Shown here piece after piece: positions 10,581 to 62,124 of a DNA stretch of 64,000 nt. The stretch's first letter is position 1, and every line of letters starts with the position of its first letter. The DNA lies in the sequence record NC_054913.1. The stretch is one strand, 5' to 3'. Source of the DNA: Escherichia phage F2. A program made the position numbers and the translations under genes. The notes below the pieces were generated by a model, which saw only the letters and a list, made by a program, of their open reading frames with translations, did no database searches and had not been told where the DNA came from.

Positions 10581-10610
10581 GTTTACTTCTCCAGCAGTTG
10601 TGTTATTATA
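10581..10610 (+). promoter_or_regulatory. T4-type early promoter module (GTTTAC -35, TATTAT -10, conserved ctatcaa downstream)
   Basis: gtttac-N17-tattatagacctatcaa; member of repeated promoter family. Confidence 0.45.
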
Positions 10611-10635
10611 GACCTATCAACTACTGGAGAACAAA

Positions 10636-10953
10636 ATGAAAACCATTGATTGTAAAGCAGAATTTAAGATTTTTTATCACGGTTCAAGCAGTTCAGCTAA
10701 CATTGAAAACATGCTTTGTCCTCCTGAGGAAACAGGAGTTCTGTCTGAAACTGGACGTAAGAAAAACTTGGACCGTGTATTCTTTACCGAAGATATCGGT
10801 TTAGCAAAGATTTATGCAGGACGAGCAGCACGCTCTTATGGAGGTGAACCACGTCTCTATCGAGTAATTTCTCCGGTAGACGTAGTTCAAATGAATAATA
10901 CTAAAGGTGCTACAGTTTATCACGCTGAATGGGCATTTTGCGAGGAAATATGA
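10636..10953 (+). CDS. hypothetical protein
   Basis: 105 aa ORF following promoter module; stop overlaps dmd start. Confidence 0.5.
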   Translation: MKTIDCKAEFKIFYHGSSSSANIENMLCPPEETGVLSETGRKKNLDRVFFTEDIGLAKIYAGRAARSYGGEPRLYRVISPVDVVQMNNTKGATVYHAEWAFCEEI

Positions 10954-11141
10954 GCAAATTAACTAAAGTTACTTTTATTGGTTGGTTTAAAAGCGGTGAG
11001 ATGTTCACTAAAGATATCATGTTATCAGGTGATCGCGAAGAAATCGAGTGGGTTGCTGTACAACTTGCTGAAGTGAACAACGCATTAGTTAAAGCATTTG
11101 TTAATGACGAGAAAGTTTTTGAAGCTGATTTCAGAGGATAA
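10950..11141 (+). CDS. dmd: Dmd-like antitoxin (discriminator of mRNA degradation)
   Basis: MSKLTKVTFIGWFKSGEMFTKDIML...AEVNNALVKAFVNDEKVFEADFRG closely resembles remembered T4 Dmd (..VFMGWFKNESMFTKEI..AEVNKALVKAFIDDKKV..); located between 41 and 61 as in T4. Confidence 0.7.
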   Translation: MSKLTKVTFIGWFKSGEMFTKDIMLSGDREEIEWVAVQLAEVNNALVKAFVNDEKVFEADFRG

Positions 11142-11142
11142 T

Positions 11143-11355
11143 ATGTATTCAACTGTGTTTAAACCATCAACATACGAATTTGCATCAACTACACAATGGA
11201 AAGCTCTTATTCTGGAAGGATGGGAACTAATGATGGACTGTGAAGCATCTGAAAAGTTTCCACACGGCAAAGTGGACTTCGTTAAATTTGCTGTACGTCC
11301 GACTAAACGACAGATTCGTCAAGAAAAACGCAAATTTCGCAAAAGTTTAAAATAA
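11143..11355 (+). CDS. hypothetical protein
   Basis: ATG 2 nt after dmd stop with SD AGAGGA. Confidence 0.45.
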   Translation: MYSTVFKPSTYEFASTTQWKALILEGWELMMDCEASEKFPHGKVDFVKFAVRPTKRQIRQEKRKFRKSLK

Positions 11356-11357
11356 CT

Positions 11358-11387
11358 GTTTACAAGCACCACATACTGTGTTACTAT
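11358..11387 (+). promoter_or_regulatory. T4-type early promoter module
   Basis: gtttac ... tactat with about 18 nt spacing upstream of lipoprotein gene. Confidence 0.4.
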
Positions 11388-11415
11388 CTTTTTATCAACT
11401 ACAGAGGAAATTGAA

Positions 11416-11784
11416 ATGAAAAAATTAATCGCTTTAGCAATGGTATTTGGATTAACCGGATGTGGTGCCCATGGCTTTATCCCTAATAACGTTGGCCAAC
11501 TGATTTACAATCCTAATGTTAAACAGTATGACCAACCTAAAGTTGAAGTGGAAGACCCGGTTACTGTAGGTAATCGAATGATTCAAGCTGATGCCCATGC
11601 TCAACGTTATCGTGACTCTGATACTGTAGCATTGTCAAAAGAACAACGCGTTAAAGAACATTGTCTACAGGCTACTGAAATCGCATTCATTCGCTATGTT
11701 GAAACAACTGGTAAAGAGCCTTCCAAGAAACAAATCGCGAATAACTACGTCCAGTGTATTGAACGTTTAAACAAATTTAATTAA
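11416..11784 (+). CDS. putative lipoprotein
   Basis: Signal peptide with lipobox MKKLIALAMVFGLTGC. Confidence 0.6.
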   Translation: MKKLIALAMVFGLTGCGAHGFIPNNVGQLIYNPNVKQYDQPKVEVEDPVTVGNRMIQADAHAQRYRDSDTVALSKEQRVKEHCLQATEIAFIRYVETTGKEPSKKQIANNYVQCIERLNKFN

Positions 11785-11844
11785 TTGGTTACACCAAAGT
11801 TAAAATAAGATACTATAAACATAACAAATCAAGAGGAAATTAAC

Positions 11845-59507: not shown

Positions 59508-59536
59508 TTTACATGCCACAAGGATTGTGGTACAAT
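59507..59536 (+). promoter_or_regulatory. T4-type early promoter module upstream of rnlA
   Basis: gtttac ... tacaat. Confidence 0.4.
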
Positions 59537-59561
59537 TTAAAAAACTAACTGAGGATACAAA

Positions 59562-60686
59562 ATGGAAAAGCTTTATTATAATCTGTTATCTCTGTGTAAA
59601 TCGTCATCTGATCGTAAATTTTTCTACTCAGATGATGTAAGTCCAATCGGTAAAAAGTATAGAATTTTCTCATATAACTTTGCTTCATATTCAGATTGGT
59701 TATTGCCTGACGCGTTAGAGTGTCGTGGTATTATGTTCGAAATGGATGGTGAAACTCCTGTACGTATTGCTTCTCGTCCAATGGAAAAATTCTTTAATCT
59801 AAATGAGAACCCGTTTACATTGTCAATTAACCTTGATGATGTAAAATATCTGATGACTAAAGAAGATGGTTCGTTAGTCTCGACATATCTTGATGGTGGG
59901 ACTGTTCGTTTCAAATCTAAAGGGTCAATCAAATCCGACCAGGCTGTATCGGCTACGAGTATTTTGTTAGACATCGACCATAAAAACTTGGCTGATCGTT
60001 TGTTAGAACTTTGTAATGACGGGTTCACTGCTAACTTCGAATACGTTGCTCCAACAAATAAAATTGTTTTAACATACCCTGAAAAACGATTGATTCTTTT
60101 GAATATTCGTGATAACAACACAGGTGAATACATCGAGTATGATGACATTTATCTAGACCCTGTTTTTCGTAAATATCTTGTAGATCGATTTGAAGTACCA
60201 GAAGGCGACTGGGCCTCAGATGTCAAGTCTTCTACAAATATTGAAGGGTATGTAGCCGTAATGAAAGACGGGTCTCATTTCAAATTGAAGACCGATTGGT
60301 ATGTTGCTCTTCATACGACTCGAGACTCAATCTCTAGCCCAGAAAAGTTGTTTCTTGCTATAGTGAATGGTGCTTCAGATGACCTTAAAGCGATGTACGC
60401 AGATGACGAGTTTTCATTTAAAAAGGTCGAGCTCTTCGAAAAAGCATATCTTGATTTCTTAGACCGCTCATTTTATATCTGTCTAGATACATATGACAAG
60501 CACAAAGGAAAAGATCGTAAAACGTACGCTATAGAAGCTCAGGCCGTTTGTAAGGGTGCACAGACACCTTGGTTATTTGGCATCATTATGAATCTTTACC
60601 AAGGCGGTTCAAAAGAGCAAATGATGACTGCTCTAGAATCAGTCTTTATTAAAAATCATAAAAATTTCATCCCTGAAGGATATTAA
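59562..60686 (+). CDS. rnlA: RNA ligase 1
   Basis: 374 aa; ...[67 protein letters not shown] matches T4 Rnl1 (gp63). Confidence 0.9.
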
Positions 60687-60688
60687 TG

Positions 60689-60718
60689 GTTTACAAACAC
60701 CAAGGAAGGTGTTACTAT
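60689..60718 (+). promoter_or_regulatory. T4-type early promoter module upstream of alc
   Basis: gtttac ... tactat. Confidence 0.4.
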
Positions 60719-60748
60719 GGCTTTTATCAATAACACGAGGAGAAAATT

Positions 60749-61249
60749 ATGAATATGCAATTGATTACTAACGATATGGTTGTGGCAGCATTTGGTGATT
60801 CTACAGATGGAATCCGAGTCTTTAAGAAAGGACGTCCAGTTGGTTATCTTACTGACCTACGTGTTACTCTAGCGAAAAATGCTAAAAAGAAGTTAAAGCA
60901 AAAGGAATATTCAACACGTTACACCGAAGAGAAACGCGAAGCGATGCCGGAAGCAGTTAATGCCATGGTAGAATTTCTTCAAAACAATTTGTCTAAATAT
61001 GACGCTAACGTATTCATTAATATTAGTCAACCAAACGTACATATCTCAGGTATAAAATTCTACATTATTTGCGACCCTCTTACCGACAAATTCAACCGTC
61101 TCGGAATCTCAAGTCCGTATCATACAGCAGAAGAGTTGTGTGTATTGTTTGAATCGTACAAAATCCAGTGCGATGGTCCGAAAACCGTTCTTATCAATGG
61201 ATTATCCCGAGATGAAATCATTGAGATTATTAAAACATGCTTAAAGTAA
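60749..61249 (+). CDS. alc: Alc-like protein (by size/position)
   Basis: 166 aa ORF between rnlA and the spanin pair, as T4 alc (167 aa). Confidence 0.55.
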   Translation: MNMQLITNDMVVAAFGDSTDGIRVFKKGRPVGYLTDLRVTLAKNAKKKLKQKEYSTRYTEEKREAMPEAVNAMVEFLQNNLSKYDANVFINISQPNVHISGIKFYIICDPLTDKFNRLGISSPYHTAEELCVLFESYKIQCDGPKTVLINGLSRDEIIEIIKTCLK

Positions 61250-61593
61250 ATCCGATTTATGCTATAGTAGCAGCTTTTGCTCTAGTTTCTACGGTAACAA
61301 TAGTTGTCTTAAACAACAAAGTTGATTCGTTGAATACTGAATTAGCTTCTGTCAAAGAGACCGCTAAAAACAATGCTAAAGTATTAGACGACTTCAAGGT
61401 TCAATATCAGTCAATCGAAGAAATGACTTATAAGAACCGTGTTTTAGTTGACCAACTTAAGGCCGAAAATGAAAAGCTCCGTAAGGATTCGAAGAAGAAG
61501 AACGTGGTGGCAAGTAAACCAGGATTGGTCGAAAAACAAATCAACAAGTCCTTCGATTCCTTTGCAGAAGACCTCAGGAAGCTCTCAGAATGA
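61237..61593 (+). CDS. i-spanin (inner-membrane spanin, PseT.3-like)
   Basis: N-terminal TM anchor IYAIVAAFALVSTVTIVVL followed by coiled-coil-like charged region. Confidence 0.6.
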   Translation: MLKVNPIYAIVAAFALVSTVTIVVLNNKVDSLNTELASVKETAKNNAKVLDDFKVQYQSIEEMTYKNRVLVDQLKAENEKLRKDSKKKNVVASKPGLVEKQINKSFDSFAEDLRKLSE

Positions 61594-61880
61594 TTAAATT
61601 AACCGCAGTTGTATTATCTATTGGCATTTTGGCCGGATGTGCCCAGGATGTGCCCTTAAGCCCTAAAGAAACTTTACATCCGCCATGGCCTGAATCTATT
61701 GTTGAATATAACCAGAAATGGCAAGTAAAGGTTATTGATGGTAATCCGTGGGTTGGAATGCCGTTTGAAGACTCTCAAGAATTTCGTATCTGGTTAAACG
61801 ATGTAAAAAGATATGTACATGACCAGAAGACTATGTTATGTTATTATCGTAGTGGTTTAAAAGAGGAAAAATGCCAATGA
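61590..61880 (+). CDS. o-spanin (outer-membrane lipoprotein, PseT.2-like)
   Basis: Lipoprotein signal MIKLTAVVLSIGILAGC; overlaps i-spanin stop. Confidence 0.6.
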   Translation: MIKLTAVVLSIGILAGCAQDVPLSPKETLHPPWPESIVEYNQKWQVKVIDGNPWVGMPFEDSQEFRIWLNDVKRYVHDQKTMLCYYRSGLKEEKCQ

Positions 61881-62095
61881 CTAAAGAACAACATGAATAC
61901 ATTAAAGGGCTTATCTATGAATCTGAAATGGCGGCTATGATTTATGGGCGCCAGATTCAACGATTAGAATCTTTGCCTCCGACTAATGACCGATTGTTAG
62001 TTCAGTCTCGTGCTAATCTGAAAAATGAATATCAGAATAAGTGGGCAGTAGCGACTAAAGCTCTTCACGAGTATATTGAATCTTTAGTAAAATAG
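61871..62095 (+). CDS. hypothetical protein
   Basis: 74 aa ORF. Confidence 0.4.
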   Translation: MPMTKEQHEYIKGLIYESEMAAMIYGRQIQRLESLPPTNDRLLVQSRANLKNEYQNKWAVATKALHEYIESLVK

Positions 62096-62124
62096 TTTAC
62101 AAACTCTCAGGAGCAGAGTATAAT
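62095..62124 (+). promoter_or_regulatory. T4-type early promoter module (near-identical to copy at 32421)
   Basis: gtttacaaactctcaggagcagagtataatgctcc. Confidence 0.45.

Follow-up and report, generated by a model that had tools for sequence, protein, structure and literature searches.

The 64,000-nucleotide (nt) stretch of Escherichia phage F2 analyzed here (NC_054913.1; hereinafter the window) contains 23 copies of a promoter-like module which, judging from the sequence, are very probably the early promoters (Pe) of an RB69-like, T4-type phage. Each of the 23 copies has its own counterpart, within 15 nt, among the early promoters that Nolan et al. 2006 predicted for RB69 (Pe:20971 through Pe:136687; PMC1524935, Additional file 3), and the genes downstream are classical T4 early genes, including motA, asiA, ndd, alc, modA, srd, imm, sp, motB, cef, rnlA, and rnh. 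The window itself (37.6% G+C) belongs to an RB69-like (Mosigvirus) T4-type phage, with nucleotide identity of 94-97% to RB69 and other Mosigvirus genomes and 65-80% to T4, and its + strand corresponds to the early (minus) strand on the RB69 and T4 maps. The T4 early consensus consists of GTTTAC at -36 to -31, an A-rich UP-like tract at -40 to -44, a GT-rich or TGn segment before the -10 hexamer, and T-12, A-11, and T-7 (PMC1524935, PMC2988021); the alignment with this consensus that the initial annotation had proposed as a check shows that the modules match the T4 form. The consensus given for the T4/PST pair, TTTACW-N17-TAYWAT (Comeau et al. 2014, PMC4122927), is nearly equal to the motif as that annotation worded it. 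Moreover, the modules resemble the T4 'uber' UP/-35/TGn/-10 early promoters (PMC2988021) in elements, positions, strand, gene class, and conservation at +1. Nothing essential distinguishes the modules from the Pe of T4 and RB69, the module at 23020 being a hybrid of two RB69 promoters; the strong Pe:6863 and the weak Pe:136969 of RB69 lack separate counterparts in the window. Work on the early promoters of T4 goes back to the 1980s, and they were reportedly described by Wilkens and Rueger in 1994 and by Miller and colleagues in 2003. The finding as such is already known, as regards T4-type early promoters, the RB69 list of 2006, and the cassette recombination reported in 2010 and 2014.

A two-block weight matrix retrieves the 23 copies, all on the + strand, with scores of 21-44 (leave-one-out scores are all at least 15.0); the next-best, non-module site in the window scores 11.5, and neither the minus strand nor Markov shuffles ever reach 15. 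Matches to the strict pattern GTTTAC-N17/18-TAYWAT number 10, again without exception on the + strand, where shuffling predicts 0.19. The repeated promoter module reported in the initial annotation is thus real, with copies where they had been placed and a chance expectation of approximately zero, but several particulars require correction. The count of about 19 is too low; a copy indeed starts at 10581, where the described range began, but the first copy is 10147, outside that range; the copy placed at 23009 is a genuine module, but its -35 hexamer is at 23020; and the copies at 32421 and 62095, described as near-identical, are similar (33/38 positions from ACAAACTCT to ATGGAT and 36/45 over the whole module) but not identical, the differences in the arms of their palindromes being compensatory (GAGAGC/GCTCTC versus GGAGC/GCTCC).

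With +1 defined as the seventh base past the -10 hexamer, the base counts at -36 to -31 are G20 T22 T19 T23 A23 C22 of 23 (GTTTAC), the variants being GGTTAC, GTGTAC (twice), TTGTAC (twice), ATTTAC, and GTTTAT. The spacer is 17 nt long in 7 copies and 18 nt in 16; T-12, A-11, and T-7 are each present in 23/23 copies (TAnnAT), an extended -10 with TG at -15/-14 is found in 18/23, and the UP-like tract has A in 13-19 of the 23 copies at -44 to -40 (A19 at -40). Downstream of the -10 hexamer, A/G predominates at -6/-5 (G at -5 in 12/23 copies), followed by C-3 (16/23), T-1 (19/23), A+1 (21/23), T+2 (17/23), C+3 (17/23), and A+5 (19/23). The G at -5 is consistent with a contact with sigma region 1.2, and T-1/A+1 with the preference for a pyrimidine-purine start. 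Every copy lies on the coding strand, just 5' of a ribosome-binding site and an open reading frame (ORF), with a leader of 19-43 nt between the module and the next start codon in all 23 copies. The stop codon of the upstream gene is at most 5 nt from the -35 hexamer in 13/23 copies, and in 17461, 51984, 59507, and 62095 the TAG of the preceding gene overlaps the first G of the -35 (gTAGTTTAC), so that the UP-like A-tract of these four copies is coding sequence of the upstream gene. The spacers form subfamilies (12 pairs identical in at least 8/12 positions, against 0.95 expected), those of modules 22029 and 21471, for example, being 9/12 identical; the spacer bases are not read one by one by the polymerase. 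The modules, named by their first position, are given below together with the hairpins and helices associated with them, including those that reach the Shine-Dalgarno (SD) sequence and those that flank the -10 hexamer (class B in 12098, 31647, 32160, and 51984; class C in 32421 and 62095, these two carrying the palindrome pointed out in the initial annotation).

10124..10139, + strand: terminator-like hairpin, GGAGAC-UUCG-GUCUCC then TTTCGGGG; after gene 41, directly 5' of module 10147
10147..10188, + strand: module; -35 GTTTAC 10147-10152, -10 TATGAT 10171-10176, predicted +1 10183; would drive the ORF 10206-10580 (RB69ORF041c-like); RB69 Pe:20971; helix, spacer TTCCTCT 10156-10162 complementary to SD AGAGGAA 10193-10199
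10581..10621, + strand: module; -10 TATTAT 10604-10609, predicted +1 10616; ORF 10636-10953 (RB69ORF040c-like); Pe:20537; helix, spacer TTCTCCAG 10587-10594 with SD CTGGAGAA 10624-10631, z=-3.6
11358..11399, + strand: module; -10 TACTAT 11382-11387, predicted +1 11394; imm.1 11416-11784; Pe:19761
11787..11828, + strand: module; -35 GGTTAC, -10 11811-11816, predicted +1 11823; imm 11845-12093; Pe:19331
12098..12139, + strand: module; -10 TATAGT 12122-12127, predicted +1 12134; sp 12157-12450; Pe:19020; class B hairpin, arms 12108-12118 and 12127-12137 flanking the -10
15945..15966, + strand: intrinsic terminator, UUCG-loop hairpin then TTTTGTTT; after soc, directly 5' of module 15980
15980..16021, + strand: module; -10 TAAGAT 16004-16009, predicted +1 16016; mrh.2-like ORF 16038-16265; Pe:14950
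17461..17501, + strand: module; -10 TATGAT 17484-17489, predicted +1 17496; 18-codon modB stub 17517-17573 (modB itself in RB69); Pe:13466; helix, 17480-17495 with 17507-17523, from the -10 region to SD/AUG, z=-4.2
17590..17631, + strand: module; -35 GTGTAC, -10 17614-17619, predicted +1 17626; modA 17648-18256; Pe:12829
18330..18370, + strand: module; -35 GTGTAC, -10 TATTAT 18353-18358, predicted +1 18365; srd 18408-19154; Pe:12088
21471..21512, + strand: module; -10 TATAAT 21495-21500, predicted +1 21507; motB.1 21532-22026; Pe:8947
22029..22070, + strand: module; -35 TTGTAC, -10 TATAAT 22053-22058, predicted +1 22065; motB 22089-22586; Pe:8387
23020..23060, + strand: hybrid module; -10 23043-23048, predicted +1 23055; cef 23077-23304; Pe:7443; helix, spacer TTCTCCTCT 23026-23034 with SD AGAGGAGAA 23064-23072
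31647..31688, + strand: module; -10 TATAGT 31671-31676, predicted +1 31683; ORF 31703-31966; Pe:165795; class B hairpin, arms 31658-31667 and 31676-31685, two G.U pairs
32160..32201, + strand: module; -10 TATAGT 32184-32189, predicted +1 32196; ndd.1 32218-32418; Pe:165283; class B hairpin, arms 32171-32180 and 32189-32198, one U.G pair, z=-3.1
32421..32462, + strand: module; -35 TTGTAC, -10 TATAAT 32445-32450, predicted +1 32457; ndd 32495-32941; Pe:165022; class C hairpin, TGAGAGC 32434-32440 with GCTCTCA 32451-32457, -10 in the loop
34684..34699, + strand: intrinsic terminator, GGGAGC-UUCG-GCUCCC then TTTTGTG; after gene 52, 5' of module 34726
34726..34766, + strand: module; -10 TATTAT 34749-34754, predicted +1 34761; motA 34794-35426; Pe:162713
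37251..37292, + strand: module; -35 ATTTAC, -10 TACTAT 37275-37280, predicted +1 37287; asiA 37315-37587; Pe:160217
48240..48281, + strand: module; -10 TACTAT 48264-48269, predicted +1 48276; rnh 48302-49219; Pe:149309
51482..51499, + strand: intrinsic terminator, GGGAGAC-UUCG-GUCUCCC then TTTTGAG; after gene 32, 5' of module 51534
51534..51574, + strand: module; -10 TATTAT 51557-51562, predicted +1 51569; frd.2 51592-51984; Pe:146013
51984..52025, + strand: module; -35 GTTTAT, -10 TATAGT 52008-52013, predicted +1 52020; frd.1 52046-52288; Pe:145300; class B hairpin, arms 51995-52004 and 52013-52022, perfect 10 bp, z=-4.3
59507..59548, + strand: module; -10 TACAAT 59531-59536, predicted +1 59543; rnlA 59562-60686; Pe:139277
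60689..60730, + strand: module; -10 TACTAT 60713-60718, predicted +1 60725; alc 60749-61249; Pe:138093
62095..62136, + strand: module; -10 TATAAT 62119-62124, predicted +1 62131; ORF 62153-62452; Pe:136687; class C hairpin, GGAGC 62110-62114 with GCTCC 62125-62129

With respect to the nature of the conserved downstream block, a scan of T4 with a matrix restricted to the -35 and -10 elements, which ignores the block, detects 20 sites on the early strand and none on the opposite one. T(-1)A(+1)TCAA nevertheless recurs in these 20 sites, with 13-14/20 matches at -1 to +3 and at +5, and 12/20 at +4. Furthermore, a note in the T4 RefSeq record names the early promoter Pe133295, and the same rule predicts +1 = 133295 for the T4 site with the -35 at 133331; apart from this single note, the T4 GenBank and RefSeq records contain no promoter features. 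Given that T4 sites found without the block still carry it, and given the match to Pe133295, the block is, on sequence grounds, the discriminator and start site together with the opening bases of a shared leader. In some copies, the block doubles as the 3' arm of a hairpin. Of the initial suggestion of a shared leader or recognition element, the conserved block and the shared leader are retained, but evidence of a separate recognition factor was not found in this sequence analysis. Further consensus regions in T4 early promoters are mentioned by Hinton 2010 (PMC2988021), and the DksA paper on Pe discriminators reports no informative motif. T4 also has a longer promoter subfamily of its own, with about 80 nt in common (tttcacaaaacNGTTTAC...TGgTACTATacaactatcaactactgatacggatttggagaataaaATG) and a shared leader that runs well past +5; its members are on the early strand, with the -35 at 27080, 167086, 163673, 146875, and 6630.

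In the scenario that we propose, the unmodified host sigma-70 RNA polymerase would read the modules right after DNA injection, using the A-rich UP-like tract (-44 to -40), the T4-specific GTTTAC(a), the extended -10 (TGn), and TAnnAT, and would begin its transcripts with the first A of the conserved T-A-T-C-A-A, 7 nt past the -10 hexamer. Each module, located directly after the upstream stop codon and 19-43 nt before the next start codon, would launch a short leader with a strong SD for a small host-takeover gene (motA, asiA, ndd, alc, modA, srd, imm, sp). The early-promoter reading of the initial annotation is accordingly upheld by the coincidence of 23/23 copies with predicted RB69 Pe sites and by the T4 consensus elements; promoter activity, and initiation at the +1 sites, are what we infer from these. 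Two observations weigh against this reading, namely that the RB69 promoters used for the matching are computational predictions themselves, and that a generic sigma-70 scan (TTGACA/TATAAT) returns 54 sites against 48 expected, so that the modules are not separable from the background. Given that the generic scan lacks power, the argument for promoters depends on homology and on the T4-specific form of the consensus. The modules leave the known picture of T4-like early promoters unchanged; for annotation, they supply 23 predicted sites of early transcription initiation and an outline of the early operons in this part of the phage genome.

Because the modules are direct repeats of ~40-75 bp scattered along one strand, they probably also serve as substrates for homologous recombination, and recombination between two modules would delete, insert, or swap the intervening gene, as in the promoter-early stem-loop (PeSL) cassette model (Arbiol 2010, PMC2839356; Comeau 2014, PMC4122927), a model that also includes promoter-ORF mini-circles arising when neighboring cassettes recombine. 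Comparison of the window with RB69 reveals 7 synteny breaks, 2 of which fall inside modules, although the modules cover only ~2.5% of the DNA, a share improbable by chance (~0.01 by a simple binomial estimate). In RB69, motB.2 is flanked by Pe:7443 and Pe:6863; in the window, from which motB.2 is absent, there is the single hybrid promoter 23020, the upstream half of which resembles Pe:7443 (the motB.2 promoter), and the -10, leader, and cef of which match Pe:6863 (the cef promoter). Similarly, RB69 ORF245c, located between Pe:146013 and frd.2, is missing from the window, with the junction in the leader repeat of 51534, a ~25-nt direct repeat (ATCAACAAATGAG(A)GGAAA..AAAATG, also given as ATCAACAA..GAGGAAA) the two copies of which are the leader of the module and a promoter-less copy of the leader before frd.2. 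In phage SF (MH359124), an additional ORF of 71 aa separates gene 52 from motA (4827-5225); it has on either side a direct copy, ~75 bp long, of the motA module together with the first 9 nt of motA, and both ORFs behind the duplicated modules begin with ATGTCTAAA. These three indels, relative to RB69 and in phage SF, with junctions inside modules, lend substance to the recombination and module shuffling contemplated in the initial annotation. Gain and loss of promoter-bounded cassettes would explain where gene content differs between close relatives. The deletion of the ADP-ribosyltransferase gene modB counts against such a role: RB69 13353-12849 is missing from the window, a stub remains behind the intact promoter 17461, with module 17590 also adjacent, and a promoter-mediated origin was rejected, the junction being an ACAAA(A)TC microhomology within modB.

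A different explanation of the similarity of the modules is that the resemblance beyond the -35 and -10 elements reflects shared ancestry only, being non-functional and spread by recombination of cassettes. The spacer subfamilies, the fresh ~75-bp duplication of the motA module with the first 9 nt of motA in phage SF, and the ~80-nt promoter subfamily of T4 are all compatible with it; yet the enrichment of T(-1)A(+1)TCAA extends to RB69-like as well as T4 promoters, despite 65-80% identity and different subfamilies, and the helix arms discussed below covary instead of being plainly copied, so we consider this explanation unlikely. Far less probable still, to the point that we give it hardly any credence, is the view that the modules are MotA/AsiA-dependent middle promoters or a non-promoter repeat. 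The phage does encode both motA and asiA, but none of the 23 modules contains a MotA box ((a/t)(a/t)(a/t)TGCTTtA at -30), GTTTAC at -35 being present instead; the 10 matches to a MotA box with a -10 (1.26 expected) are all located elsewhere; and the position, strand, spacing, and SD/ATG context of the modules fit promoters.

The MotA-box matches delineate a second promoter class in the window, TGCTTnA-N11-13-TAnnAT, with 10 matches against 1.26 expected. Nine of these are on the + strand (1275, 2580, 6450, 15076, 16374, 24341, 45958, 49102, 63232) and one on the minus strand (18315-18290). The match at 24341 precedes gene 39, and that at 45958 (+) lies inside the minus-strand gene 34, at a position that corresponds to P34i/oriG of T4.

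Many of the modules also have helices built into them. By copy, 4 have an upstream UUCG terminator, 6 have a hairpin flanking the -10, 4-5 have a helix from the spacer or -10 to SD/AUG (10147, 10581, 23020, and 17461), and ~9 have no significant structure. The 5' arm of the helix sits in the spacer or the -10 in ~40% of the copies, and the 3' arm lies either directly after the -10 or on SD/AUG, in about half of the cases each. The 5' part of each module (spacer and -10) is more complementary to its own 3' part (past the -10 to AUG) than to those of other modules (duplex-energy permutation p = 0.00015). For the analysis of covariation, related copies were taken from IMG/VR viral contigs with three patterns. 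The class C arms covary (GAGAGC/GCTCTC, GGGACC/GGTCCC, GGGAGC/GCTCCC, GGGGTC/GACCCC, GGAGC/GCTCC), with all non-Watson-Crick positions being G.U on the sense strand, as do the class B arms (GGACT/AGTCC, GGGCT/AGCCC, GGAAG/CTTCC); within the window, GGGCT/AGCCC of 51984 is compensatory relative to GGACT/AGTCC of 12098. In the spacer-SD set, selected only for GTTTACTTCTCC...TANNAT, there is covariation between the bases that follow TTCTCC and those on the 5' side of GGAGA in the SD (for example, CAGTAGTTG/CAACTACTG, TCATG/CATGA, TCTGGTT/AACCAGA, and TGTAGATG/CATCTACA), with a covariation score of 0.348 against 0.150 for shuffled pairs (0/500 exceed it) and 0.07-0.15 when the partner is slid. Among 195 unique, unselected T4-type promoters, which, like the related copies, include orthologues and are non-independent, helices of at least 8 net bp are present in 55, against 8.1 in permuted pairs; 27 of the 55 adjoin the -10, and 28 are on SD/AUG (6.8 in permuted pairs for SD/AUG). 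The ratio of G.U to A.C in the helices of these unselected promoters is 30:10, against ~1:1 in controls.

Since G.U is tolerated on the sense strand, and A.C only rarely, these data suggest that the module helices act as sense-strand RNA. The same data speak to the possibility that the palindromes and the block around -10/+1 are operators for a phage DNA-binding protein, such as one responsible for silencing the early promoters after 2-3 min. The inverted repeats are indeed centered on the -10 hexamer, and two reviews state that the mechanism of early-promoter shut-off is not understood; the arm sequences, however, vary by copy with compensatory changes, which fits base pairing and not sequence-specific recognition by a protein, the non-Watson-Crick positions are G.U on the sense strand and seldom A.C, and most modules lack any palindrome. 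On the strength of the covariation and the G.U bias, we reject the protein-operator reading, which appears very improbable. More serious, albeit in our judgment still doubtful, is the alternative that the stem-loops are terminators or attenuators of upstream transcripts, the module being a terminator-promoter composite that insulates neighboring cassettes. The RB49 PeSL stem-loop reduced lacZ expression as strongly as a strong terminator (Arbiol 2010, PMC2839356), modules 10147, 15980, 34726, and 51534 lie directly behind hairpins that have a UUCG loop and a trailing T-run (after genes 41, soc, 52, and 32, respectively), and covarying arms with G.U tolerated only on the sense strand would likewise be expected of an element that acts in RNA. 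However, the -10-overlapping hairpins (12098, 31647, 32160, 51984, 32421, 62095) are followed by A-rich sequence and not by a U-run, and 12098, the only one of them within the range scanned for terminators, was not called as such; thus, a terminator role of these hairpins is not supported by their sequence. Moreover, the spacer-SD helices have ~30-nt loops and lack U-runs, and the RB49 stems consist of a G-run and a C-run, unlike the stems in the window (PMC4122927).

The comparison with the PeSL cassettes runs along the same lines. The modules share with them a sigma-70-type early promoter with an associated stem-loop, an upstream stop codon in an AT-rich tract, an SD and start codon at the 3' end, clustering in plastic regions before small ORFs, and indel junctions between close relatives that fall inside the cassettes. 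The PeSL papers (PST/T4), however, place the stem-loops just 5' of the promoter and call them terminators on the basis of the G/C-run stems of RB49, whereas in the window an upstream terminator is found at 4 modules only, and the other helices overlap the -10 or link the spacer to the SD, without a U-run.

In the module helices, those flanking the -10 as well as those that reach SD/AUG, the 5' arm is located upstream of the promoter's own start, so that only read-through RNA from upstream could fold them. The predicted unpaired probability of the SD..AUG segment in read-through RNA versus the promoter's own RNA is 0.21 versus 0.41 for 10581, 0.19 versus 0.52 for 17461, 0.35 versus 0.83 for 23020, and 0.27 versus 0.66 for 34726. 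There are precedents for such an arrangement in T4, where the translation-initiation regions of e, soc, 49, and I-TevI are inaccessible in long transcripts and become available in RNA started at an internal promoter (PMC3014915). Modules 10581, 23020, 10147, and 17461, along with many relatives, are similar to these cases in having the 5' arm upstream of the proximal start and the 3' arm on SD/AUG. In the T4 cases, the internal promoter is late (TATAAATA) and translation is delayed to the late stage, whereas in the spacer-SD helices of the window the internal promoter is an early sigma-70 module, and the predicted effect is restriction of translation to the earliest transcripts. Several results tell against masking as a general feature: the helices with the 5' arm in the spacer or -10 occur in only a minority of the copies, the mean fold z-score over all modules is -0.96, and in read-through RNA the module genes have a mean SD..AUG accessibility of 0.47, compared with 0.49 for the other internal genes. 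Masking of the ribosome-binding site as a general property of the modules was rejected on the last two counts and, the accessibility of module genes being that of other internal genes, any masking would be limited to a subclass.

We tentatively raise the possibility, on which we would not insist, of a functional and hitherto undescribed subclass of early promoters in which the nucleotides past the -35 are a covarying complement of the downstream SD (for example, TTCTCCAG/CTGGAGAA and TTCTCCTCTGGTT/AACCAGAGGAGAA). Under this model, the promoter's own transcript would start inside the loop and be translatable, and in read-through RNA the ribosome-binding site would be covered by a helix of 9-15 bp. 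The small takeover genes would thus need their own early promoters in order to be translated, an 'immediate-early only' gate that mirrors the late-only gating. Such a gate would also explain the conservation of spacers within promoter subfamilies. Should the spacer-to-SD helices have such a gating role, the timing of early genes in T4-like phages would be subject to an additional, post-transcriptional level of control, and there would be limits on the reuse of such promoters in engineered phages. The spacer-to-SD subclass is not described in the PeSL papers or in two T4 reviews from 2010, a scope that excludes the older T4 literature, and it is possibly the only new element among those reported here.

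As for the rest of the window, the gene order on the + strand is 43, uvsX, 41, the imm/sp region, 61, 56, soc, modA, srd, dda, dexA, motB, cef, 39, rIIA, rIIB, denB, ndd, 52, motA, and asiA; next come the tail-fiber genes t, 38, and 37-34 on the opposite strand, and past these rnh, 33, 59, 32, frd, td, nrdA, nrdB, denA, rnlA, alc, and pseT. The distal tail-fiber/adhesin region (38277-42247, genes 37/38, minus strand) has zero nucleotide similarity to the RB69 version and patchy similarity to that of T4, and is a host-range cassette swap. The frd region (52305-53511) is mosaic, with 86% identity to T4 and no detectable nucleotide match in RB69; a Pfam search with the extra 115-aa ORF found there (53153-53500) returned zero matches.

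The nrdA gene (54718-57877), which is intact in both RB69 and T4, is split in the window into a 474-aa piece (ATP-cone, N domain, and barrel profile positions 1-221) and a 329-aa piece (barrel positions 220-523), between which lies an ORF of 236 aa (56188-56898) that encodes an I-HmuI NUMOD-like homing-endonuclease domain. The insertion is common to 33 phage records, in which it is annotated as a homing endonuclease, and the split gene resembles the 'genes in pieces' reductase of Aeh1 with mobE. An Rfam scan of the whole window returned zero known RNA families; the module hairpins are not a curated family, and nrdA lacks a group I intron. Finally, 192 bp located between gene 56 and soc in RB69 (15447-15255) are missing from the window at 15662-15700, and a late-promoter-like TATAAATA is present upstream of soc in both the window and RB69.

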